Shown here piece by piece: positions 8,635 to 61,921 of a DNA stretch of 64,000 bases (position 1 is the stretch's first letter; each line of letters begins with the position of its first letter). Source of the stretch: an uncultured Candidatus Saccharibacteria bacterium (GTDB lineage: Bacteria > Patescibacteriota > Doudnabacteria > UBA920); assembly GCA_964561085.1 (NCBI GenBank), contig CAZLNP010000004.1, forward strand, positions 15,580 through 79,579. The letters are read 5' to 3'. The position numbers were made by a program, and so were the translations under genes. Under the pieces are notes generated by a model. It did not search any database. It was not told the DNA's origin and saw only the letters and a program-made list of their open reading frames with translations.

Positions 8635-8659
8635 ACTTACAGTTTAAAATTCACATTAA

Positions 8660-8692
8660 AAAAACTCCCGGTTGGGAGTTTTTTTAATTTAC
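8660..8692. terminator. Bidirectional intrinsic terminator (aaaaaactccc-ggtt-gggagttttttt)
   Basis: Perfect GC-containing hairpin flanked by an A-run and a T-run, between the convergent trxA (+) and ATPase (-) genes. Confidence 0.7.
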
Positions 8693-8696
8693 ATAG

Positions 8697-10466
8697 TTAC
8701 AACTTATAAGTTTCACCTGGCTGAATTCCTGCATTCGGTTGCGTTTGTATTTCTTCTTTAGGAACTTCTACCTTTGGAGCATCGATCTTTGGATTGGCAT
8801 GAGCAGTTTGAATGGCCTTAGCTACATTTTCTGCGATCTCATTTTGTTTACTTGATTGGATAGCTGCCGCTGTATCCCAAATTGCAGCAGATTTATTTGG
8901 TTTCTTAGGCTGATTCTTAGGTGCTGTTGCCATTGGTTTAACCTCAGGCTTAGCCATGGGTTTTGATGGTTGCCTCATTTGCTGCATTCTATCTTTGAAT
9001 GCTGAAGATATCTTAATTGGAGGAGGGGTAGCAGGCTTGCTTTGAACTGGAGTATTTGTAGAAGCGCTTGTAGGTGTAAATGCAGCCGGCTTTGGTGCAA
9101 CATCCGGAATATCATTCTCTCTAGACCGAGCTTTCTCTCCGCCACTAGCGGAGTCTGCGCTGGCCTCATGGAACTCAGCACCCATCCATCTGTTAATCTT
9201 ATCTTCTACTTCAGCACTTGGATTTGCATATCTTTCCCTAGAAACTTTAATGACTTTCTCTGAATTTCCAGTAAACCAATTTTCATCAACTTGCAAAGAA
9301 GTCGCTGTGAATGGATCACTTGCTACGCCATTAATCATTAACTTTAAAATAACATTATATTTTGGAATGTTTACAATATCCACCGGGGTAAATGATGGTT
9401 CGAACTCAGTTTCTAAAAACTCAGCATCAGCAGCACCGACACGGAACACAATCATTGAGCCAACGTTACCAAAAACCGCATCACGCATTTTTGTGTTGCC
9501 TTCAGGGACCAACTGTCCAATGTACTGATGGCCCATAGTCAAATTTAGGCGATACTTACGAGCTTCACTCAAAATAGTAGCAAAAGAGTCTGTTACGAAA
9601 TTTTGGAACTCATCTACATATAGGTAGAAGTCTTTACGCTCATGCTCAGGGATATCAACACGAGAAAGCGCCGCTAACTGTAATTTAGTAATGATCATAG
9701 CACCAAGCAAGGCGGAGTTATCTTCTCCTACTTTACCTTTTGAAAGATCAAGCAAAAGAATCTTCTGATTATCCATGATCTCTCTAAGATCGATCGTAGA
9801 CTTTGGCTGCCCTACAATATTACGAATTACGGAGCTAGATAAAAACTGACCAACTTTGTTTTGAATCGGTGCTACAGCTTCTGTTCTATATTTTTCTGCG
9901 TAGTTAGCAAACTCTTCTAGCCAGAAAGCTCTAACCATCGGGTCTTTAATTCCGTCGACAATTTTCTTACGGTACTTTTTATCTACGTACATACGAACAA
10001 TACCCATCATGGTATTACCGGGGCTATCTAGTAAAGCTAAAATAGTGTTGTTCAAAATGTATTCCATACGAGCCGACCACATGCTTGCCCAAATTTTTGT
10101 AAACACACCCATTAAACCTGAAGCTACTAAATGTTTATACTTACTATCTACTGCTTCAAGAATGTTAAATGCGATAGGGTGATCTAAGTCTGCAGGGTTA
10201 AAATAGACCACATCGTTAATCCGATCATTTGGAATGTAATCTAAAATTTTCTTTAGTGAGTCTCCATGAGGATCAATAAAACAAACCCCGTTACCATTGC
10301 GAATATCTTGAATAACCATGTTTTCCATCATGGTTGTTTTACCCATACCAGTCTTACCGATCATATACATATGACGGCGACGGTCATCGGTTTTAATACC
10401 AAATGGCACTTGCCGGTTACGGAAGTTGGTTTTCCCAAAAAAATTGATTACTTCTTTTTCAGCCAT
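8697..10466 (-). CDS. VirD4/TraD/TraG-like (type IV coupling protein family) P-loop ATPase with a disordered Pro/Ala/Lys-rich C-terminal tail
   Basis: Walker A (IGKTGMGKTT) near the N-terminus, a Walker B-like LYVDEFQNF, and a helical all-alpha insertion typical of TrwB/TraD-like hexameric ATPases. There is no N-terminal TM segment. The last ~170 aa are low-complexity. Family call is from pattern memory, not a search. Confidence 0.45.
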   Translation of the reverse strand: MAEKEVINFFGKTNFRNRQVPFGIKTDDRRRHMYMIGKTGMGKTTMMENMVIQDIRNGNGVCFIDPHGDSLKKILDYIPNDRINDVVYFNPADLDHPIAFNILEAVDSKYKHLVASGLMGVFTKIWASMWSARMEYILNNTILALLDSPGNTMMGIVRMYVDKKYRKKIVDGIKDPMVRAFWLEEFANYAEKYRTEAVAPIQNKVGQFLSSSVIRNIVGQPKSTIDLREIMDNQKILLLDLSKGKVGEDNSALLGAMIITKLQLAALSRVDIPEHERKDFYLYVDEFQNFVTDSFATILSEARKYRLNLTMGHQYIGQLVPEGNTKMRDAVFGNVGSMIVFRVGAADAEFLETEFEPSFTPVDIVNIPKYNVILKLMINGVASDPFTATSLQVDENWFTGNSEKVIKVSRERYANPSAEVEDKINRWMGAEFHEASADSASGGEKARSRENDIPDVAPKPAAFTPTSASTNTPVQSKPATPPPIKISSAFKDRMQQMRQPSKPMAKPEVKPMATAPKNQPKKPNKSAAIWDTAAAIQSSKQNEIAENVAKAIQTAHANPKIDAPKVEVPKEEIQTQPNAGIQPGETYKL

Positions 10467-10503: not shown

Positions 10504-11667
10504 CTAGATAGGAAGGTCTGCAGGTGGTTGAATTTTCTTTGTACTAACAGTTTCAACCGAAGCGTTAACCTGGTCGGCTGTAATCGGGAAATGGAACAAA
10601 GTGGCCAATTCCTCCGCATTAAGAATGTACATAGGATTACCGATCCAAGTACTACGGCCTTTAAACGCTTTAAAAATATCGATCTTCTTTTGACGAACCC
10701 AATAATTAATGAAAGGAGCTTCCAAAGTCGGTGAAATGCGATAGTCTTTCTTTGGACCAAAAGCTAACTTAAAACTGTTAGAGTTGGCAGAGTTAAATAC
10801 CTTAAAAGGACTGAGCAGTAATTTTTTTGCATCTTTGTTAAAACTTTCCTTAACACCCATGTGCAATACGCGGATTTTTGTACTAAAACCAGGCTTACCT
10901 AATTTAGATTTAATTGATGCAATGCGTAATTTCGTTACATCATCAATCTGTTGGAAATCCTTTTCTCCTTGCAACTTCTCTACAGTTGCCTCAGCTTCTT
11001 TTCTCCATGAATCATCACCTACAGGCTTGATGATTATTTGCATAGCATAAAACTCTTTTGCGCTTAGGCGAGTAAAAACTTCCAAAAGTGGGCTAAGAGG
11101 ATCTACTACTTTCTCGCTAGCATCAGGCCCTTTTAAACTTATAAATTCTCTGTAAGTACGAATAGGAATAACTTCTGATTGAGTTAGCACCATCTCCCCG
11201 CCAAAAAGCTCATATTTTTCATTATCTGGATTATATTCAAAATGAGAAAGATAATCTTCTATCTCGTTCATTTCTATATGAGGGTAGTTAGCGTAAAAAG
11301 AGGCTTCAACAAGCTCTTTTTGCTTCTTTGGTACCCGAATGACGTATGAGATTTTACCACCCAGGCTGACGATTTCTAAAGAAAGCCAGAACACTAACTT
11401 CCCTTCAATGTATTTTTCTTGAAAGGTCCAGTTATCGAATAATTGATGAAGCTGTATAAAAATTTGCTCAGCATTGTAAAAACTAGAGATGTTTTCTTTC
11501 GGAGGTTTTATTTCGTAATAAACCCATTCCAAACTATTTTTATAGTTATCTTGGATTTCGTTTAAGTATATTTGAAAAAGTATGTAAACAAAAAGAATGG
11601 CAAAAACAACCCAACCGCCGTGGGAAAATAAATACCATACTATACTTAGAATTGAGCTATCAGTCAT
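10504..11667 (-). CDS. Hypothetical membrane-anchored protein (one N-terminal TM, large soluble domain), probably co-transcribed with the downstream ATPase
   Basis: Hydrophobic N-terminus ILSIVWYLFSHGGWVVFAILFVYILFQI. There is a 38-nt gap to the ATPase start on the same strand. No recognizable motifs. Confidence 0.5.
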   Translation of the reverse strand: MTDSSILSIVWYLFSHGGWVVFAILFVYILFQIYLNEIQDNYKNSLEWVYYEIKPPKENISSFYNAEQIFIQLHQLFDNWTFQEKYIEGKLVFWLSLEIVSLGGKISYVIRVPKKQKELVEASFYANYPHIEMNEIEDYLSHFEYNPDNEKYELFGGEMVLTQSEVIPIRTYREFISLKGPDASEKVVDPLSPLLEVFTRLSAKEFYAMQIIIKPVGDDSWRKEAEATVEKLQGEKDFQQIDDVTKLRIASIKSKLGKPGFSTKIRVLHMGVKESFNKDAKKLLLSPFKVFNSANSNSFKLAFGPKKDYRISPTLEAPFINYWVRQKKIDIFKAFKGRSTWIGNPMYILNAEELATLFHFPITADQVNASVETVSTKKIQPPADLPI

Positions 11668-11739: not shown

Positions 11740-12825
11740 TTAAGCTAAGTCGTAAAGATTTTTTCCAACTTTCTTAACTAGTTTCTTATTCGAAAGTCCA
11801 ACTAAAATAGTGTTGTTCTTAACCATGCGACGTTTCAAAACTTCTTCGATAATTTCTTCTCGTGACATTGGCTTACCAGCATCTTTTAGAACATTAACGA
11901 TGATATCTGATACTACACCTGGCTTATATCCCCATTCAGCTAAAGCATACATGCCGCGGCCCACAAGTACAAAGCGTTTATCTTTGATAAGTTTATTGTG
12001 CACTGTTTCTTTATAGGCAGTGCGTTTGTCTAAACCATGTTTGTTAATCAAATCAGTAATTACTGAGTAGTGCTCAGGTTTGTTGTGGTGTTTCATCACC
12101 AAATAGGCTTTATCGCCAACATCTTTAGGACGGATTTCATTCCAGTGGTGCATACCAAATTCACCAAATGGATTTTTATGAATCCCTGAGGTTGCTTGCA
12201 AATAGTTTATGATAACGCGTGGTGAAAGTTGTGGTTCATACTTTTTGAAGAAATCAGATTCAGCAAACTTTTCAATAAATTCTTCAGGTTGTAATGGTTT
12301 TCCGTGATTATCCAAAATGCCGCGAGTTGTGTTTACAAACTCTTTAATAAATTCTTTATCAAAGCCAATGCGAGACCAAGATTGCTTAATATGCTTATCT
12401 TCGGAATGTTCTTCAAGTTCAGCCATTAAGTTTAGTAAGAACTTCAAAGCGTTTGCTTCTTCATCAGTTTCTGCACCTAAATGACCCATTAATGTCTTTT
12501 CAGACATAATGCCGCCATGCTCTGTAATTGTTGTTAAAAGAAGATCGCGCGCGGCTAAAAAGGAGTCCAATTGTTGAACACCATTCTTTAGGTTCTTTAG
12601 TAAATCTTTTTCAATTTGACGAACACGCTCACGTGTTAATCCTTGCTCTTCCCCCACTGTTTTAAGGGTTTGCATTTCTTCACCACCAAGACCGTAACGC
12701 TTAGAAAGTATAGACTTTTCGCGTTCACGTAATGGATCTAAAATTTTGGTGATAATTAGATTTAATTCAAATTGTTGTAGAGATTCTTTTTGATGAGAAT
12801 CAATTATTGTATCTAAAATGCCCAT
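11740..12825 (-). CDS. Putative transcription factor with an N-terminal sigma-70 region-4-like HTH and a C-terminal HARE-HTH-like winged helix
   Basis: The N-terminal ~85 aa match sigma-70 region 4 (LSKRYGLGGEEMQTLKTVGEEQGLTRERVRQIEKDLLKNL). The C-terminus (...TAYKETVHNKLIKDKRFVLVGRGMYALAEWGY) resembles the HARE-HTH / RpoE-delta N-domain pattern FxRVGRGxYxLxEW. There are no sigma region 2/3 equivalents. Confidence 0.5.
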   Translation of the reverse strand: MGILDTIIDSHQKESLQQFELNLIITKILDPLREREKSILSKRYGLGGEEMQTLKTVGEEQGLTRERVRQIEKDLLKNLKNGVQQLDSFLAARDLLLTTITEHGGIMSEKTLMGHLGAETDEEANALKFLLNLMAELEEHSEDKHIKQSWSRIGFDKEFIKEFVNTTRGILDNHGKPLQPEEFIEKFAESDFFKKYEPQLSPRVIINYLQATSGIHKNPFGEFGMHHWNEIRPKDVGDKAYLVMKHHNKPEHYSVITDLINKHGLDKRTAYKETVHNKLIKDKRFVLVGRGMYALAEWGYKPGVVSDIIVNVLKDAGKPMSREEIIEEVLKRRMVKNNTILVGLSNKKLVKKVGKNLYDLA

Positions 12826-12957
12826 TTTCTTGAGGGTTTCTTGGCTAAAATAGCCTATTTATAACGATAAACCGATTATAACATATATTTCATAACGTGT
12901 CAAACAATGTGGGATAATAAAAAACACTGCAGAGGCAGTGTCTTTTGTAAGGCATAT

Positions 12958-39144: not shown

Positions 39145-39561
39145 TTAGAAAGCTTGGAGCATATAAGCAAGGATCATCATGCATCCCAATGAGCCAAAGG
39201 CCATAATCAAGATTTTTTGCATAAACCAATTTGGATCAGTCCCACCGAAGAGCACTGCAGAAACTTGGGTTGGAACGATAAACCCTAGCCAGAAGAATCC
39301 TGCTAGCCCATACACGTTCCAATCGCTTGGTAGGCCGTTCATTAACAGAGCGAAGACCACGGAAGTTATAATCGTAAAAACGAATTGAGCAACCAAAAGA
39401 GGTGCCATTTTCTTGGTCATCACTTTTTGCTCTTCTGGAGTTGCTTTATCGAAGCCATGGATTTTGCCCCACATTTTCCCAAATATAGGCATGTACCATA
39501 TTGCGCCAAAAATAAATTGCGCAACAGCGGCAACTAGTACCGCGACGAAGTTTATATTCAT
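39145..39561 (-). CDS. DUF1761-like membrane protein
   Basis: N-terminus MNINFVAVLVAAVAQFIFGAIWYMPIFGKMW is characteristic of the DUF1761 family. Four predicted TM segments. Confidence 0.55.
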   Translation of the reverse strand: MNINFVAVLVAAVAQFIFGAIWYMPIFGKMWGKIHGFDKATPEEQKVMTKKMAPLLVAQFVFTIITSVVFALLMNGLPSDWNVYGLAGFFWLGFIVPTQVSAVLFGGTDPNWFMQKILIMAFGSLGCMMILAYMLQAF

Positions 39562-39593: not shown

Positions 39594-42164
39594 TCAGGGC
39601 TTCTGATCATAAAGAGCCAAAAGTGCTTTTAACAATTCTGGATGGTAGTGCTCGGTTATCATGTTGGCGGCCTTGTAACTTTGAAACCACTCCGGATTCG
39701 TTGTCCTAAACTGCTCAGCATCACGAATAATAGTTTCCCGAGCATGCTTGTACTTAAGAGCTAAAGCATAAGGCGTTATCCAACCCTCAGGAGGGCTTGT
39801 AACACTTTTTCGCTCTGCATCCCAGTCCAAAATTTCTTTTACCAAATCTGGATGGTAATGCTCAGCAACCTTGCTTCGGGTTTTAAACTTTCCAAACCAA
39901 CCAGGATGCATAACTCTATAATTTTCAGCAAATCTTGCAGACCTCTCGTAATCAACACCATGCTCAGAATATAACTGGCTCGTAGTTTTCCATCCATCAG
40001 GTGGAGATGGAAATTCAATTTTTGAATATTCTTTTTCAATAAGAAGCACTAATTCAGGATGATAAAAATCCACTTGACCAGCCCTAGTATAGTACTGCTT
40101 AATCCAATCAGGGTGCTCTGTTCTATAGCGCTCAACAAATTTTTTGATAGTGACATCCGATGTTTTCACTTCTTTTCTTAGGGCACTTGCAGTTTTCCAA
40201 CCTTCTGGCGCCTTTCTGCTATCAAATTCAACTTTCAAAATAGCCATTAACTCAGGGGAGTAATGTTCAAGTATATGATTTTGAGTTTTATACTCTTTAA
40301 ACCAGTCTGGGTTTTGATCTCTATATTTATCAGCTTCAACTTCAATTATTCTCTGGGCAGAGCCTAAAATAGCCTGGGACCCCTTATGAGTAATCCACCC
40401 CTCTGGCGCCCAATTAGTTTCAGCTCTCGGTTTCAACTTATCTACTACTTGTTTAACTAAGTCTGGATGATAATGATCATACACTACACCTTTATCATTC
40501 TTAAACGTGCCTGCCAAATCTGGGTTACCTGCTGCGAGTGAACTAAGTAAAGAATATACAGCCATATAAGGCAAATTGTAATTCTTGCTAATTTGATTAG
40601 CATTAAGCCAGTTATCAGGAGCTAAACTTGCTTCTACTCTTTGCTCCTGAAAGTCTTTCGATATACTCATGATCTCCTTCGTATCAACAATAACTTTCAA
40701 CCCTTCAATATTTAAATCAGATAACTTATTAGCTATTTCATCCTTGTTTTTTTCTGCCGGATCAACACTTTCTGAGTTTCCCAGAAACCGTCGCTCTGAG
40801 CTGTCTACTTCTGCAGCATTAGCAACTTCAGAAAACAAAATCATTGGCCGAGCAGGGCTTTTATCTATAAAGTCTATGATGTACGCCCACTTTTCAGCAT
40901 TATCTGGATTCAATCTGAGTACTCGCCCCCCTCTTTGCTCAGCATCTACTTGAGACAGAGTTGGGTGTAAATTAAATGCAGCTGTAGCCCTTGGTTCATC
41001 GAAACCTTCGATAAGAACTCTAGCATTGCACAAAACTTTAATTTCGCCGCTATGGAATCGATCTAAGATTTCGTCTCTTTGTTCAGGTTTCGTGCTGCCC
41101 GAAATAACTGCACTTTTCACCCCAGATTCTTCAAACAACCGATTTATATCCCTTGCATGGTTAACCCCAGAGCAATACGCAACAACCCTTTCACCCTTAA
41201 AAGCTTTATTGTACAATTCGACTGCTGATAAATTACGAGCCTCATTATTAACAGCTTTTTCTAAATCGACACTATCATAGTTGTGATTAGTATTTAATTT
41301 AACACTAGAGAGATCAGTACTTGTATAAGCCAGGATAGATTTAAATCTATTAATTAAACCTTCTTGAACTCCTTCAATAATATTCATGTTATGGACCTCT
41401 GTATTCAGAAGCTCTTTTACATGCTTATTGTCTGAATATCGAGGAGTTGCTGTGAACCCTAGCTTAATGGCATCAAAACTTTGAATTGCTTCGATGGTCT
41501 TTTCTCCCAAAGCTTTATGGGCTTCATCTAGAATCAATAAGTCATAGTCGTTAGGATTAATGACGCCACTTGAAACAGCATTAATTAAAGATGGATATGT
41601 TATTACAGTCACATCTTGATCAAAATTCTTTTCTTCTTGGTAATATTTTCCAAAATCTATGTCGGTAAATTGTTCCAATTTTTCCCCAGTCTGATTGACT
41701 AAGATCTTAGAAGGGACCACAATCAATGATTTTAATCCCAGCGCTTCTGTTATCTGGGAAAACAGGACAGTTTTACCAACTCCAGTTGGTAATTTTACAT
41801 AACCCTCTTTATGTCCTTCCTCGAGAAACGTTCGCACATCTTCAAAAACAGTAAATTGTCTATCCCTAAGGACTCGCTCTTCAGGGTTCAATTGATGGTG
41901 AGAAATGTATTCATCTAGGTTATTCAAAGCTTGAATAGAAGTACGCAACTTAACTAACTCATGTTGGGAAATGTCAGATTCATTCCTACGGCTACGTAAC
42001 AGCTTTAAATAAGTATTATACCTTTCTGGGAATTTCGATTTGATATCTTCTATAGAAAGATTGCTGTCATTCACTCCGCGATCAATATCTAATCCCAAAA
42101 TCTCTGAAGTCGCATCTACTTGATTTTGGATATCATGCTCTGATTTATAGTTTCTATTTTCCAT
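39594..42164 (-). CDS. Superfamily-2 (DEAD/DEAH, ResIII-like) helicase with five C-terminal tandem ~67-aa repeats
   Basis: Walker A LPTGVGKT, DEAH-box ILDEAH, a helicase C-domain with motif VI-like QRGGRVLR, then (aa ~516-851) five repeats with consensus PEGW.T...........Y....P.WF..YK.......EHYHP[ED]L. No nuclease domain is recognizable. Confidence 0.75.
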   Translation of the reverse strand: MENRNYKSEHDIQNQVDATSEILGLDIDRGVNDSNLSIEDIKSKFPERYNTYLKLLRSRRNESDISQHELVKLRTSIQALNNLDEYISHHQLNPEERVLRDRQFTVFEDVRTFLEEGHKEGYVKLPTGVGKTVLFSQITEALGLKSLIVVPSKILVNQTGEKLEQFTDIDFGKYYQEEKNFDQDVTVITYPSLINAVSSGVINPNDYDLLILDEAHKALGEKTIEAIQSFDAIKLGFTATPRYSDNKHVKELLNTEVHNMNIIEGVQEGLINRFKSILAYTSTDLSSVKLNTNHNYDSVDLEKAVNNEARNLSAVELYNKAFKGERVVAYCSGVNHARDINRLFEESGVKSAVISGSTKPEQRDEILDRFHSGEIKVLCNARVLIEGFDEPRATAAFNLHPTLSQVDAEQRGGRVLRLNPDNAEKWAYIIDFIDKSPARPMILFSEVANAAEVDSSERRFLGNSESVDPAEKNKDEIANKLSDLNIEGLKVIVDTKEIMSISKDFQEQRVEASLAPDNWLNANQISKNYNLPYMAVYSLLSSLAAGNPDLAGTFKNDKGVVYDHYHPDLVKQVVDKLKPRAETNWAPEGWITHKGSQAILGSAQRIIEVEADKYRDQNPDWFKEYKTQNHILEHYSPELMAILKVEFDSRKAPEGWKTASALRKEVKTSDVTIKKFVERYRTEHPDWIKQYYTRAGQVDFYHPELVLLIEKEYSKIEFPSPPDGWKTTSQLYSEHGVDYERSARFAENYRVMHPGWFGKFKTRSKVAEHYHPDLVKEILDWDAERKSVTSPPEGWITPYALALKYKHARETIIRDAEQFRTTNPEWFQSYKAANMITEHYHPELLKALLALYDQKP
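39612..40619 (-). repeat. Five tandem ~200-nt coding repeats (PEGW...NPDWF...EHYHPEL module) in the helicase C-terminus
   Basis: Seen in the translation. Repeats are divergent at the nucleotide level, so they are ancient rather than recent. Confidence 0.65.
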
Positions 42165-59888: not shown

Positions 59889-60653
59889 TTAAGTCAGAAT
59901 TCTAACACCAGTCTTTGTCACTGCAATAGTATGCTCGAAATGAGCGGCTAAACCACCATCATGAGTACGAATTGTCCAACCGTCAGTATCGAAGAAGATT
60001 TGCGGCTTATTCTCACAAACCATTGGTTCAATTGCTAAAACCATATCTTCTACTAAAACGATTCCCTTTCCAGGTTTCCCATAACAAGGTACGGCAGGAT
60101 CTTCATGAACAGCATAGCCTACACCGTGACCAACCAAGTCACGAACTACGGAATACCCTGCACCCTCAACTGTAGACTGAATCGCATGGCCAATATCTCC
60201 AATAGTATTTCCTGGCTTCACTTGTTTCAAAGCATTATCTAGCGAAAGCTTGGTTACTTCCATTAATTTAATGGCAACATCAGAAACTTTACCAACAGCA
60301 ACTGTAATAGCAGTGTCAGTGTAAAGTTTTTTATATTCCATTCCAATATCTAAACCAAGTATGTCGCCTTCTTGAAGAATATCTTTCGAAGATGGCACGC
60401 CATGAACAACCGCATCATTAATAGAAGTGCATAGTCCATAGAGGAATGGATTCTTCCGGCTACCATAACCAATAAAGCTTGGGCGACCACCGGCCTTGAT
60501 CATCTCTTCTTCTGCAAAATCGTTAATTTCTAGAGTGGAGATGCCTGGCTTTGCCATTGCAGCTGCACGATGAAGAATGTCGCGCAAAATTTTTCCGCCT
60601 TCATCGATTATTTCAATCTCTTCTTTAGTCTTAGTGTATCTAGCTTTTGCCAT
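59889..60653 (-). CDS. map: Methionine aminopeptidase, type I
   Basis: Metal ligands in conserved context (D...DIGM...HGVGY...EPM...E). Confidence 0.9.
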   Translation of the reverse strand: MAKARYTKTKEEIEIIDEGGKILRDILHRAAAMAKPGISTLEINDFAEEEMIKAGGRPSFIGYGSRKNPFLYGLCTSINDAVVHGVPSSKDILQEGDILGLDIGMEYKKLYTDTAITVAVGKVSDVAIKLMEVTKLSLDNALKQVKPGNTIGDIGHAIQSTVEGAGYSVVRDLVGHGVGYAVHEDPAVPCYGKPGKGIVLVEDMVLAIEPMVCENKPQIFFDTDGWTIRTHDGGLAAHFEHTIAVTKTGVRILT

Positions 60654-61299
60654 TGTTATTCTCTTTATATATCTCTTGATAATTCTTTAAGTAAAAATTG
60701 ATCGCTTTCTGAATTCGCGCTCGAACTTGAGTGCGAGTCCCCATGCCATCAATGTTTGCAAAAGTATAAGTGGATTTGAAAAATTCCACAACCTCAGCAA
60801 TATTCTTCCGATAGTACTTAGCGCGATTTTTTAGAGCTGCCGCGCTATCATCTGCGCGTTTGCTGAATTTAGTATTGAAGTATCCTTGGCGCTGTTGGAT
60901 TCTACTAACAACTTCCTGTTGAGGAATTCTGATGTAGAGCACTAAAGGTTTAGTCCTGTTTGTTTCCTTTAACAATTTAGCAATAATTCTTGCTTCACCC
61001 ACCATTTTTGGATGACCATCAAATAAAATTCCTGTTTTGATAGGCGTACGCAGAATAGTATCGTTGTTCAGTTTTCGAACTATAGCCGTTGGTGTTAGTA
61101 GGCCTTTATCATTTTTTTGCTGAAGTACAGCATCAATTTTCTTATCTTTTTGACGCAATAAAGTCAGTTCACGCCCCATGTCATAATCGAACATTTTGTA
61201 CTTCTTAGCAAAATATTCAGCTTGAGTAGCCTTTCCTGCACCAGGATCACCTAAAAGCACTAAATTTAATGGAGGGGTTTTAACAGTCTTGCTTGGCAT
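60640..61299 (-). CDS. Divergent adenylate-kinase-family (NMP kinase) paralog with a long basic C-terminal extension
   Basis: P-loop LVLLGDPGAGKATQAEYFAKKY, an NMP-binding LLR and ILFDGHPK in place of ILDGFPR, and a LID-like RADDS. The start is placed at the internal Met (MPSKTV...), giving an 8-nt gap to the upstream adk rather than a 59-nt overlap. Confidence 0.55.
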   Translation of the reverse strand: MPSKTVKTPPLNLVLLGDPGAGKATQAEYFAKKYKMFDYDMGRELTLLRQKDKKIDAVLQQKNDKGLLTPTAIVRKLNNDTILRTPIKTGILFDGHPKMVGEARIIAKLLKETNRTKPLVLYIRIPQQEVVSRIQQRQGYFNTKFSKRADDSAAALKNRAKYYRKNIAEVVEFFKSTYTFANIDGMGTRTQVRARIQKAINFYLKNYQEIYKENNNGKS

Positions 61300-61306
61300 C
61301 TTATTA

Positions 61307-61921
61307 TTATTCCAATGCTTTATTAATGCGCTCGGTAATTTCTTCGATTGTGCCAACGCCATCAATAGTATGCAGATCCCCTATGCCTTGCATAAATTTC
61401 AAAACTGGCTTCGTCTCTTTGTCGTAAGTTGCTAAGCGGAAGCTGATCTTTTCTGGAGTATCATCAACACGGAACTCGTGATGAGCTCGTTCAAGTAAAC
61501 GCTTTACCGATTCCTCGTTAGGTACATCAATATGAATTGCTCCAAAACTAGTAAAACCGTTCTGCTGTAAATAGTGGATAAGATGCACGGCTTGAGGAAC
61601 TGTTCTTGGGACACCATCAAAAAGCAATCGCTTGTGTTTGATTACTTCTGGTAGTTCTGTTTGAAGAACGCGGAATAACTCGTCATCTTCGAGCAGTTTC
61701 CCTGCATCAATTAAATCTTTAACTTTTATTCCGAACGGGGTGCTCTTCTTTGCTTCTTCGCGAAGAATGCCACCCATTTCCCAATAAAAATAGCCGAGCT
61801 TAGCAGCTAAGGTTTTACCTTGCGTACCTTTACCCGACCCTTGGGGTCCAATCATGAATATAGCGTCGTATTTTGGGATTTCCATTACTTTAATTATACA
61901 TTTAGCCTTGATTTTAAGCAA
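61307..61921 (-). CDS. adk: Adenylate kinase
   Basis: P-loop IFMIGPQGSGKGTQ, GGILREE, LFDGVPRT and a LID (RVDDTPE). Confidence 0.85.
   Translation of the reverse strand: MLKIKAKCIIKVMEIPKYDAIFMIGPQGSGKGTQGKTLAAKLGYFYWEMGGILREEAKKSTPFGIKVKDLIDAGKLLEDDELFRVLQTELPEVIKHKRLLFDGVPRTVPQAVHLIHYLQQNGFTSFGAIHIDVPNEESVKRLLERAHHEFRVDDTPEKISFRLATYDKETKPVLKFMQGIGDLHTIDGVGTIEEITERINKALE

Follow-up and report, generated by a model that had tools for sequence, protein, structure and literature searches.

A sigma-70 region 4 protein with four tandem winged helices is conserved across Patescibacteria and encoded upstream of a coupling-protein-like ATPase

The minus-strand gene at positions 11740-12825 of the window (the whole 64-kb stretch of DNA that was analyzed, from contig CAZLNP010000004.1 of an uncultured Candidatus Saccharibacteria bacterium) encodes a 361-aa protein that is neither a sigma factor nor the remnant of one. 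It is an intact housekeeping gene belonging to a Patescibacteria-wide family. The protein joins the C-terminal part of a group-1/2 sigma factor, made up of a region 3.2 stub and region 4, to four tandem winged helices (WH1-WH4), three of them HARE-type. The best reading of its function, which we put forward tentatively, is a stand-alone general transcription factor that would bind -35-type promoter DNA.

Domain architecture

Pfam search of the 361-aa protein detected Sigma70_r4 (PF04545; E 4.7e-12, 45.7 bits vs a cut-off of 24.1) at the N-terminus, in agreement with structural matches, and HARE-HTH (PF05066; E 1.2e-12, 48.5 bits vs a gathering cut-off of 25.9) in the C-terminal part. WH3 on its own scored 30.9 bits against the same PF05066 cut-off of 25.9. 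The domain make-up proposed by an earlier sequence-only reading, which had also seen no equivalents of regions 2 and 3, was therefore confirmed. Region 2 (PF04542) gave no match at E <= 1 in the protein, and alignment to sigma factors placed its beginning inside region 3.2, with regions 1.1-3.1 absent. Lacking region 2, the protein has no means of binding the beta' clamp helices or of melting the -10 element. An alpha-CTD/HhH module was found in the 361-aa protein neither by Pfam nor in the AlphaFold model.

Over its first 85 aa, the protein was closest in sequence to RpoS and RpoD. All of the curated sigma models scored below their cut-offs, namely TIGR02937 (sigma70-ECF; 35.7 bits vs 42.9), the RpoS model (60.7 vs 378.7) and the RpoD_Cterm model (52.2 vs 354), so that among the sigma-70 family signatures the protein carries region 4 and lacks both region 2 and a full-length match.

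In the AlphaFold model (pLDDT 86), sigma region 4 leads into four winged helices, of which WH2-WH4 were HARE-related (Table 1). About 10 residues of region 3.2 are kept at the N-terminus, where the MGILDTIID stretch (aa 1-15) has a pLDDT below 50, and the winged helices add about 275 aa. Neither WH1 nor WH2 on its own had a Pfam match; hhalign gave probabilities of 74% for WH1 vs WH2, 94.7% for WH2 vs WH3 and 93.8% for WH4 vs WH3. WH4 reached 21.8 bits with PF05066, which is under the cut-off, and is folded (pLDDT 75-92). The charge is split along the chain: sigma region 4, WH3 and WH4 are basic (pI 9.7-10; WH3 9.7, WH4 9.8-10) and WH1 is acidic (family median pI 5.2). Among the 42 close homologs, the cores DVGDKAY...KETVHN.LIKD.RF.L.GRG.YAL.EWG of WH3 and V..R.VK.NT.LVGLSN of WH4 were invariant. 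By sequence, the winged-helix array matched solved structures only at the level of noise, and Foldseek recovered no whole-chain structural analogs, only tandem-WH proteins at poor rmsd and single WH domains. Long Foldseek alignments to sigma4/flap-tip chimeras hinted that the helix after region 4 may perhaps occupy the flap-tip pocket intramolecularly.

Table 1. Positions of the gene, its protein modules and its operon in the window
Feature	Position	Strand	Remarks
Sigma-region-4/four-winged-helix gene	11740..12825	-	361 aa, span including stop codon
N-terminal MGILDTIID motif, region 3.2 stub, aa 1-15	12781..12825	-	Aligns to RpoS 'LLDTLTDD'
Sigma-70 region 4 (4.1 + 4.2), aa 16-86	12568..12780	-	
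Recognition helix LTRERVRQIEK	12607-12639	-	Inside sigma-70 region 4
WH1, divergent acidic winged-helix module, aa 87-155	12361..12567	-	Model secondary structure
WH2, HARE-related winged helix, roughly neutral charge, aa 156-232	12130..12360	-	hhalign
WH3, HARE-HTH proper, basic, aa 233-302	11920..12129	-	PF05066 match
WH4, HARE-like winged helix, basic, aa 303-361	11743..11919	-	hhalign and PF05066 sub-threshold
Operon promoter: TTGACA, 17-nt spacer, TG-extended TATAAT	12875..12903	-	12/12 consensus matches
GC-rich hairpin then T-run, just after secF; divides secDF from the operon	12924..12941	.	
Second gene: 387-aa protein, N-terminal hydrophobic (membrane) segment and ~330-aa domain	10504..11667	-	
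Third gene: 589-aa TrwB/TraD/VirD4-like (type IV coupling protein family) P-loop ATPase	8697..10466	-	Pfam
Intrinsic-terminator-like hairpin, 15-bp stem then T-run, closing the three-gene operon	8655..8688	-	

Conservation and intactness of the family

A total of 451 cluster representatives were detected at E <= 1e-30. Matches were seen in at least 416 species-level genomes, and 79 of the best 80 were labelled CPR or unclassified. Both PF04545 and PF05066 were present in all of the 120 best homologs. The 80 CPR homologs examined all measured 320-396 aa, and the window protein follows the family pattern (about 320-400 aa, PF04545 N-terminal, PF05066 at about aa 225-300). Upstream of the gene start the reading frame stays open for just 11 codons, and the 132 bp that separate the gene from the end of secF contain a terminator hairpin. 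M1-G-I-L-D5, the native N-terminus, was invariant in 42/42 close homologs. The MGILDTIID stub was invariant in Doudnabacteria-type homologs and was missing from many Saccharibacteria-type and Parcubacteria-type forms in an alignment of 82 CPR sequences. Neither the window nor the roughly 0.9 Mb of sequence flanking the 80 loci contained an ORF resembling region 2, and no RpoD gene was found within the window or the 80 CPR loci compared.

The family carries the name 'sigma factor-like helix-turn-helix DNA-binding protein' at NCBI and is also catalogued in a published data set (PMC10633639), and our literature search found no functional study of the sigma4-HARE family. The suggestion that this domain combination is undescribed is therefore only partly right, since the family is catalogued yet uncharacterised.

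Conservation was high in the helix that would face the -35 element. In the alignment, query residue i corresponds to E. coli sigma70 residue i+519, so that R65/E66/R67/R69/Q70 align with R584/E585/R586/R588/Q589, which are the established contacts to the -35 element. These five residues were invariant in the 42 close homologs and at least 95% conserved in the 82 CPR sequences. The helix TRERVRQIEK as a whole was likewise at least 95% conserved in these sequences from many CPR phyla, a conservation that is a sign of constraint and does not in itself identify the target sequence. The recognition helix is the same as in primary sigmas (TRERVRQIE here vs TRERIRQIE in E. coli), and the 4.1 motif R-[FY]-G-[IL] was conserved. 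Judging from these residues, the region-4 module would be expected to bind TTGACA.

Operon structure and partner genes

The three genes are enclosed by a perfect TTGACA-17-TATAAT promoter and a terminator-like hairpin. This promoter is the only perfect TTGACA-N16-18-TATAAT in the window, and near-consensus promoters were located upstream of the homolog in nearly all of 69 non-redundant CPR loci, so that a strong promoter of its own precedes the gene both here and across CPR. The 387-aa protein encoded by the second gene has its hydrophobic segment at about aa 6-40 and had no Pfam, NCBIfam or PDB match, even with a 26-sequence profile. In about 17 CPR loci its counterpart is fused to the ATPase and makes up the N-terminal half of the resulting protein. 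The 589-aa ATPase scored above the cut-offs of PF10412, PF02534 and PF12696, had partial NCBIfam matches (TraD, VirD4-like, CedD), and matched TrwB in the PDB. It carries a TraG-D_C 'TraM recognition' region and a disordered Pro/Ala/Lys-rich tail of about 170 aa. The ATPase core was 51-88% identical across CPR loci and was more conserved than SecD/SecF.

The ATPase pair to which the sequence-only reading had drawn attention was also found beside orthologs in related genomes. The membrane protein and the TrwB/VirD4-like ATPase lay directly downstream on the same strand in 58 of 80 CPR loci from many phyla, with gaps of -40 to about +110 nt after the gene, and several of the exceptions were truncated contigs. 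The window shows the split form of this arrangement. A clade of oral/gut Saccharibacteria-labelled loci kept the gene without an adjacent ATPase, and none of the 150 best representatives was a fusion of the sigma4-WH protein with the ATPase. A purely transcriptional role does not account for an operon link this tight and this deeply conserved (58/80 loci), which speaks against a transcription-factor reading.

Patescibacterial VirD4-like ATPases are mostly orphans, with 148 of 5,713 located near virB4, and their role is an acknowledged open question (PMC12102498). A defence-system component was rejected: PADLOC returned only generic partial matches (MzaA sigma region 4, mad8 ATPase at 9e-14, HerA P-loop) and no match for the 387-aa membrane protein, and the family is carried on the chromosome throughout CPR and is apparently essential.

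The apparent ortholog in Southlakia epibionticum

SEML1_0294 of S. epibionticum, a cultivated relative, is the apparent ortholog of the window protein by architecture, length and synteny. Its 349 aa contain PF04545 (aa 27-72) and PF05066 (aa 225-283), and it is listed as core, Patescibacteria-enriched and essential (Tables S1/S2 in PMC10633639). The Tn-seq call was ES/ES/ES, with 24 insertions in the input DNA and 1, 1 and 2 after selection, in the single CPR organism tested (PMC10633639). This call could be confounded if insertions change expression of the downstream ATPase. SEML1_0293, the fused ATPase directly downstream, was scored NE, and a full RpoD (regions 1.2-4) is present and essential (PMC10633639). 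Since SEML1_0294 is essential and SEML1_0293 is not, the essential role cannot be exerted through the ATPase. By architecture and synteny, essentiality and independence from the ATPase apparently extend to the window gene.

Possible functions

As a stand-alone transcription factor, the protein would read -35-type TTGACA hexamers through its region-4 module, with the contact residues that primary sigma uses. Its two basic C-terminal winged helices would grip the DNA on either side, and WH1-WH2, being acidic or neutral, would serve as a spacer or a protein-contact surface. By occupying or pre-marking -35 elements, it may modulate the access of RpoD holoenzyme at many promoters. The predicted targets include its own perfect-consensus promoter, which also drives the co-transcribed, membrane-anchored, coupling-protein-like ATPase. 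What the protein does to RNA polymerase and what each winged helix contributes are presumed here. The earlier proposal of a free region 4 on the -35 element fits the near-invariance of R65, E66, R67, R69 and Q70 and is kept as a plausible mode of binding; the 'anti-sigma decoy' variant found no specific support.

The invariant region-3.2 stub of Doudnabacteria-type proteins points to contact with RNA polymerase itself, beyond free DNA. Region 4 and the stub might sit on the core beta-flap tip and RNA-exit channel, in the place of RpoD region 4, and make the protein an RNA-polymerase-bound accessory subunit. Docking could follow the release of sigma or take place in a mixed complex, with the HARE helices acting like Gram-positive delta (a CPR-specific delta-like or sigma-appropriation-like factor). 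We consider such a subunit unlikely, because many CPR lineages lack the stub, among them those with Saccharibacteria-type and Parcubacteria-type forms. Furthermore, the conserved hydrophobic residues also belong to the core of the fold and are therefore no proof of flap binding. RpoD of S. epibionticum retains its own region 4, and both proteins would therefore compete for one site. The comparison with Firmicutes delta (RpoE) also argues against it. HARE-HTH occurs in both, and some JGI annotations name homologs 'delta subunit'. However, the window protein scored 30.9 bits vs the TIGR04567 cut-off of 42, and its HARE domain is internal (aa 238-298) and triplicated, whereas that of delta is N-terminal. 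Delta ends in a polyanionic disordered tail, whereas the window protein ends in a folded basic winged helix, and delta has no sigma region 4. Neither an N-terminal HARE domain above cut-off nor an acidic disordered C-terminal tail was thus found in the window protein.

By analogy with translocase systems, the protein might instead be a DNA-recognition adaptor of the co-encoded membrane ATPase, which would mark specific sites on the DNA for the loading or orientation of a VirD4/TrwB-like translocase. The downstream position of the membrane protein and ATPase in the 58 loci, the promoter and terminator common to the three genes here, the 'TraM recognition' region and long disordered tail of the ATPase, a core more conserved than SecD/SecF and the orphan state of most patescibacterial VirD4-like ATPases all favor this role. 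It is nevertheless rather improbable, as the gene is essential in S. epibionticum and the adjacent ATPase is not, the oral/gut Saccharibacteria-labelled clade has the gene without the ATPase, no fusion occurred among the 150 best representatives, and neither a clustered TTGACA array nor any other repeat resembling a loading site is present in the window. A role that joins both sides, which we regard as doubtful, is a lineage-specific essential general transcription factor that would place its own region 4 on the RNAP beta-flap, instead of that of RpoD, or pre-mark -35 elements, and in addition connect promoters or chromosomal DNA physically to the highly conserved membrane VirD4-like translocase.

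A local repressor or activator acting only on its own three-gene operon would agree with the position of the gene as first in the operon and with the perfect -35 hexamer of its promoter, which could take the region-4 module. We regard it as very unlikely: the gene is essential and the regulated partner dispensable, the recognition helix is the same as in primary sigmas and many genomic targets are therefore predicted, and the size and five-module complexity exceed the usual needs of a local repressor. Finally, two further readings, of the gene as what is left of the 3' end of a disrupted rpoD/rpoS or as one of the two subunits of a split sigma, are suggested by the RpoS- and RpoD-like N-terminal 85 aa and by the PROKKA label 'RpoS' of SEML1_0294 and are hardly credible: the 11 open codons, the distance to secF behind its hairpin, the conserved N-terminus and the uniform homolog length rule out the remnant, which the sequence-only reading had itself raised, and the lack of a region-2-like ORF in the window and the flanks of the 80 loci, together with the complete (regions 1.2, 2, 3 and 4) and essential RpoD of S. 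epibionticum, rules out the split sigma.

Patescibacteria represent a large share of bacterial diversity and have very few recognisable transcription regulators, and their transcription control is almost unstudied. A family that occurs in many CPR lineages, has an apparent ortholog essential by Tn-seq and carries the -35-reading part of sigma with near-invariant reading residues is notable in this context, and the genetic tractability of S. epibionticum makes a concrete hypothesis testable now. Were the protein to compete with RpoD at -35 elements or to assist it there, promoters would be globally controlled in a new way; were it to serve the ATPase instead, it would be a DNA-recognition adaptor of a new kind. 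For the role of the orphan VirD4-like ATPases, the operon link may provide a first useful clue. If promoters and translocase were indeed linked by one protein, this would define a new class of RNAP-associated factor and a function for the orphan coupling proteins, which occur about twice per CPR genome.

TTGACA frequency

TTGACA was strongly depleted in the window and less so in its five closest relatives. The pooled CPR loci carrying the gene showed no depletion. TTGACA depletion was therefore rejected as a family-wide mark of a free -35 binder and lends the promoter-binding reading no support across the family.

Comparison with known systems

The aligned segment was 23-47% identical to region 4 of group 1/2 sigma-70 factors (RpoD/SigA, RpoS) and had the same fold (Foldseek TM 0.7-0.8). 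It differs from them in that winged helices are appended and regions 1.1-3.1 are absent. Fusions of HARE-HTH to sigma region 3/4 HTH domains are reportedly mentioned in the Pfam text for PF05066. Aravind and Iyer reportedly described in 2012 such fusions and others to the alpha-CTD helix-hairpin-helix, and are said to have predicted that the HARE-sigma HTH fusions inhibit RNAP binding at start sites, like delta. The window protein has the same pairing without the alpha-CTD/HhH part; to our knowledge, four WH modules, a coupling-protein operon and Tn-seq essentiality do not belong to that account.

In B. subtilis SigO-RsoA and phage T4 gp55/gp33, sigma functions are split among polypeptides, one of them on the beta-flap/-35 side. 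In contrast, no partner with region 2 is encoded near the window gene, and the genome of the apparent ortholog also has a complete RpoD. DNA recognition by translocases is known from the FtsK gamma winged helix with KOPS and Streptomyces TraB with clt, and TraM and TrwA are coupling-protein partners. As in these cases, an HTH/WH DNA-binding unit is genetically coupled to an FtsK/TrwB-superfamily ATPase, but the window protein is a separate polypeptide whose essentiality, in the apparent ortholog, is independent of the ATPase. The likeness to TraM/TrwA is one of functional analogy, as the window protein had no Pfam or PDB match to them. Region 4 without region 2 was also detected in three Sigma70_r4 proteins of uncultured phages (BFVD A0A6J5LKM7, A0A6J5S254 and A0A6J5SLI7; TM 0.49-0.65 per target). 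In contrast to the window protein, these are viral, uncharacterised proteins of 94-136 aa without the winged-helix array.

Domain architecture and sigma-derived residues

The sequence-only reading had assigned a sigma-70 region 4 and a HARE-HTH domain to the sigma4-WH protein (sigma region 4 plus four winged helices), and both assignments are correct and well beyond chance. Pfam detected PF04545 (Sigma70_r4) at aa 29-80 (E 4.7e-12, 45.7 bits, cut-off 24.1) and PF05066 (HARE-HTH) at aa 239-298 (E 1.2e-12, 48.5 bits, cut-off 25.9). In NCBIfam, aa 3-85 aligned with the extreme C-terminal parts of the RpoS and RpoD models, and the protein scored far under every full-length sigma cut-off. Its top PDB sequence matches were region 4 of RpoS, RpoD and SigA.

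The AlphaFold2 model, based on a 42-sequence alignment, was confident (mean pLDDT 86.4, pTM 0.69) and contained four winged helices, WH1-WH4 (Table). Profile-profile comparison indicated mutual homology of WH2, WH3 and WH4 (hhalign 89-95%), with WH1 more divergent (74% to WH2). Analyzed alone, WH3 exceeded the HARE-HTH threshold with 30.9 bits, and WH4 stayed just under it at 21.8 bits. Therefore, the HARE-HTH is module three of four (WH3) and not, as first placed, the C-terminus. Family-wide, sigma4, WH3 and WH4 were basic (median pI 9.7-10), WH1 acidic (median pI 5.2) and WH2 neutral.

Pairwise alignment related residue i of the protein to residue i + 519 of E. coli sigma70. R65, E66, R67, R69 and Q70 corresponded to sigma70 R584, E585, R586, R588 and Q589, which are known from sigma70/sigmaA-DNA structures as the recognition-helix residues reading the -35 element, and R43-Y44-G45-L46 to R562-F563-G564-I565 of region 4.1. 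The segment LTRERVRQIEK displayed no variation among 42 close homologs, and conservation of TRERVRQIEK was 95% or higher over 82 distinct sequences drawn from many CPR (Patescibacteria) lineages, whose overall identity is just 31-38%. The N-terminal ILDTIID aligned with the C-terminal limb of region 3.2, 'LLDTLTD' in RpoS. This stub was invariant in Doudnabacteria-type proteins and missing from many Saccharibacteria-type and Parcubacteria-type members of the 82 sequences.

Features of the sigma4-WH operon and protein and TTGACA copies in the window
Feature	Position	Strand	Remarks
sigma4-WH ORF	11740..12825	-	361 aa, ATG start
N-terminal stretch	aa 1-15		low confidence in AlphaFold2 model
Sigma region 4 helices	aa 18-85		AlphaFold2 model
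WH1	aa 87-155		winged helix, AlphaFold2 model
WH2	aa 156-232		winged helix, AlphaFold2 model
WH3	aa 233-302		winged helix, AlphaFold2 model
WH4	aa 303-361		winged helix, AlphaFold2 model
Perfect promoter	12903 to 12875	-	TTGACA, 17 nt, TG-extended TATAAT
Membrane partner	10504-11667	-	72 nt past sigma4-WH gene; 387 aa, N-terminal hydrophobic segment
TrwB/TraD/VirD4-like ATPase	8697-10466	-	37-nt gap from membrane partner; 589 aa
Strong terminator	8688 to 8655	-	3' of ATPase gene
TTGACA copies	8255, 22044, 33115, 45816	+
TTGACA copies	55977, 37144, 35927, 12903	-

The refuting case put forward in the sequence-only reading, an rpoD gene disrupted so that just its 3' end is left, could be ruled out. 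The frame 5' of the ATG is open for 11 codons only, the upstream secF ends 132 bp from the gene with a terminator-like hairpin between, the N-terminal M-G-I-L-D was identical in 42/42 aligned homologs, and the 80 homologs taken from genome assemblies were without exception 320-396 aa long. No likeness to sigma region 2, 3 or 4 was found in any other ORF of the window.

The protein has a region 4, as sigma factors do, but does not show the features that define their family. It shares the HARE-HTH with the delta subunit, but was under the TIGR04567 cut-off and carries a basic winged helix where delta has its acidic tail. Stand-alone Sigma70_r4 proteins of uncultured phages lack the winged-helix array. 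The original HARE-HTH paper reportedly described bacterial fusions of this domain to HTH domains of sigma region 3/4 and to alpha-CTD, and is said to have predicted that they inhibit RNA polymerase binding; the Pfam text likewise mentions such fusions. No alpha-CTD-like module is present in the sigma4-WH protein.

Operon organization

The sigma4-WH gene is the first of three minus-strand genes in the window, followed by genes for the membrane partner and an ATPase in which PF10412, PF02534 and PF12696 were all over cut-offs. As the sequence-only reading had proposed to check, the ATPase pair accompanies the orthologs: both downstream homologs were on the same strand in 58 of 80 genome loci, with gaps of -40 to ~+110 nt. 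The upstream SecDF was kept in only 32/80. Among 69 non-redundant loci, nearly every gene had its own near-consensus promoter directly 5', with TTGACA matching 6/6 in 45 and a spacer of almost always 17 nt.

In ~17 CPR loci membrane partner and ATPase were fused into one protein of 830-1034 aa (for example L046:6986-10048 and L023:7052-10036), showing that they form one unit. The membrane partner had no relatives in Pfam, NCBIfam or PDB-profile searches and, given these fusions, appears to be an N-terminal module, hitherto uncharacterised, of these coupling-protein-like ATPases.

Neither partner was found within the flanks of 18 loci; at least three of these end within ~1 kb of the gene, and 11 more are near-identical and labelled Saccharibacteria. 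A set of near-identical loci with this label (L059, L061-L069, L071, L073, L080) kept the sigma4-WH gene, while the 6 kb downstream of it contained no pair of membrane protein and ATPase. In the Peribacteria loci L045, L050 and L053 an ATPase homolog was located 3-5 kb off on the opposite strand, not directly downstream. These three and L077, also labelled Peribacteria, carried, within the flanks covered, a second sigma4-WH copy ~3.3-5.4 kb from the first.

Across loci, the ATPase core had a mean identity of 64% to the window protein (87-88% in the closest relatives, L001-L005), a striking conservation given that SecD/SecF reached ~53%, the sigma4-WH protein 41-46% and the membrane partner 31%. 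Across CPR phyla the core was thus more conserved than SecD/SecF of the same loci, although the Southlakia epibionticum homolog scored non-essential in co-culture. The ATPase tail (aa 416-589, window 8697-9218) is a low-complexity, Pro/Ala/Lys-rich stretch of ~170 aa (22 P, 27 A, 24 K+R, 20 D+E) reminiscent of the C-terminal extensions with which conjugative TraD proteins bind their partners.

A survey of type IV secretion in Patescibacteria counted 5,713 VirD4-like coupling proteins in 2,918 genomes, just 148 of them near virB4, described their role as unknown and mentioned no sigma-like neighbour (PMC12102498). We found no literature report of an operon link between the sigma4-WH gene and the orphan coupling-protein-like ATPase.

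Distribution and annotation

A word-indexed search with the sigma4-WH protein gave 5831 matches, the best 120 of which were all ~360 aa with PF04545 and PF05066. Searching exhaustively with aa 86-361, the portion outside the sigma region, gave 451 cluster representatives at E <= 1e-30; in all of the best 150, fragments apart, the winged-helix array begins at about residue 80-130 of ~340-400-aa proteins. A genome scan detected at least 416 relatives in species-representative genomes. Among the best 80, 79 were MAGs labelled Patescibacteria/CPR or unclassified 'bacterium', the labels including Doudna-, Sacchari-, Kuenen-, Uhr-, Nealson-, Falkow-, Peri- and Berkelbacteria, Paceibacterota and Minisyncoccales. 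The one exception, contig L020 (CAYNCE010000047.1), labelled 'uncultured Gammaproteobacteria bacterium', carried the full CPR-type cassette of sigma4-WH, membrane protein and ATPase and was probably mislabelled through an error of binning or taxonomy. The window itself consists of ordinary chromosomal DNA (secA, secDF, pepN, dnaE, thrS, map, adk, prfA-like and others).

Calling the family undescribed was an overstatement: it is catalogued under an NCBI name, in CPR-enriched family lists and in Tn-seq tables, and what holds is that it is functionally uncharacterised. Source names include 'sigma factor-like helix-turn-helix DNA-binding protein [Candidatus Doudnabacteria]' and 'sigma-70-like protein'. 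Public annotations are inconsistent and in part wrong (homologs P0022, P0049 and P0071; SEML1_0294), among them 'hypothetical protein', the mistaken 'DNA-directed RNA polymerase delta subunit' (JGI) and 'RNA polymerase sigma factor RpoS' (PROKKA). The family gets no discussion in Méheust et al. 2019 (PMC6744442).

Putative function

In S. epibionticum ML1, SEML1_0294 was named 'RpoS' by PROKKA (Wang et al. 2023, Tables S1/S2, PMC10633639). It has 349 aa, PF04545 at 27-72, PF05066 at 225-283 and the structure-based domains 'tri-helical, winged, winged, winged', and was flagged as a core, Patescibacteria-enriched family; the main text does not discuss it (PMC10633639). From architecture, length and synteny we infer that it is orthologous to the window protein. 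In Tn-seq it scored ES/ES/ES, 24 insertions in input DNA falling to 1, 1 and 2 after selection, while SEML1_0293 directly downstream, a fused protein of the TrwB type with 921 aa, was called NE/NE/NE, with 82 insertions in the input and 87, 120 and 110 afterwards (PMC10633639). The same genome has a complete, essential RpoD with regions 1.2, 2, 3 and 4, SEML1_0063 (PMC10633639). Lacking region 2, the sigma4-WH protein cannot be a sigma factor, and the complete RpoD that coexists with its apparent ortholog rules out half of a split sigma.

A general role independent of the ATPase, played at promoter DNA or on RNA polymerase, is suggested by the near-invariant -35-reading residues, by the basic sigma4, WH3 and WH4 modules and by the fact that the apparent ortholog is essential. 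The most likely mechanism, tentatively preferred, is a stand-alone general transcription factor binding promoter DNA in the -35 manner. Region 4 would bind TTGACA and might thereby affect the RpoD holoenzyme; competition at the -35 element, proposed from sequence, is plausible. An accessory subunit of RNA polymerase, docking on the beta flap by region 4 and the region-3.2 stub, is a serious rival, if rather unlikely: the invariant yet disordered MGILD motif speaks for it, and the lack of this motif in many lineages tells against it. A second serious but similarly improbable rival is a DNA-recognition adaptor for the co-encoded translocase; the deep conservation of the operon speaks for it, and an essential sigma4-WH ortholog beside a non-essential ATPase makes it less convincing. 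The promoter factor, accessory subunit and adaptor do not preclude one another, and an autoregulator with a purely local role is less likely than any of these and quite doubtful.

Sigma-derived, superphylum-wide and essential-looking, the protein suggests a clear mechanism that can be tested, and has a conserved, unexplained link to a membrane DNA-translocase-like ATPase.

TTGACA depletion and other genes of the window

TTGACA/TGTCAA occurred 8 times in the 64-kb window against ~45 expected (ratio 0.18, ~5.6-fold depleted), the second most depleted of 2080 hexamer classes. A -10-like TAnnnT was located 16-18 nt downstream of 8/8 copies, which together with the depletion supports the earlier remark on near-perfect TTGACA -35 boxes in this genome. 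Depletion was weaker in the five closest relatives (L001-L005; 22 observed, 41.6 expected) and absent from the remaining CPR loci with a sigma4-WH gene, pooled; across the family, depletion does not go along with the protein. The depletion and the promoter placement of all copies suggest that selection against spurious -35 hexamers is unusually strong in the window lineage.

Two adjoining, slightly overlapping ORFs (60640-61365 and 61307-61921, both minus strand) matched adenylate kinase (PF00406), suggesting a tandem duplication of adk, which would be uncommon in a reduced genome. An EVE-domain protein (PF01878; 38642-39094, minus strand) is encoded near an 856-aa ResIII/helicase protein (39594-42164, minus strand), the two genes being separated by one small gene (DUF1761, 39145-39561).
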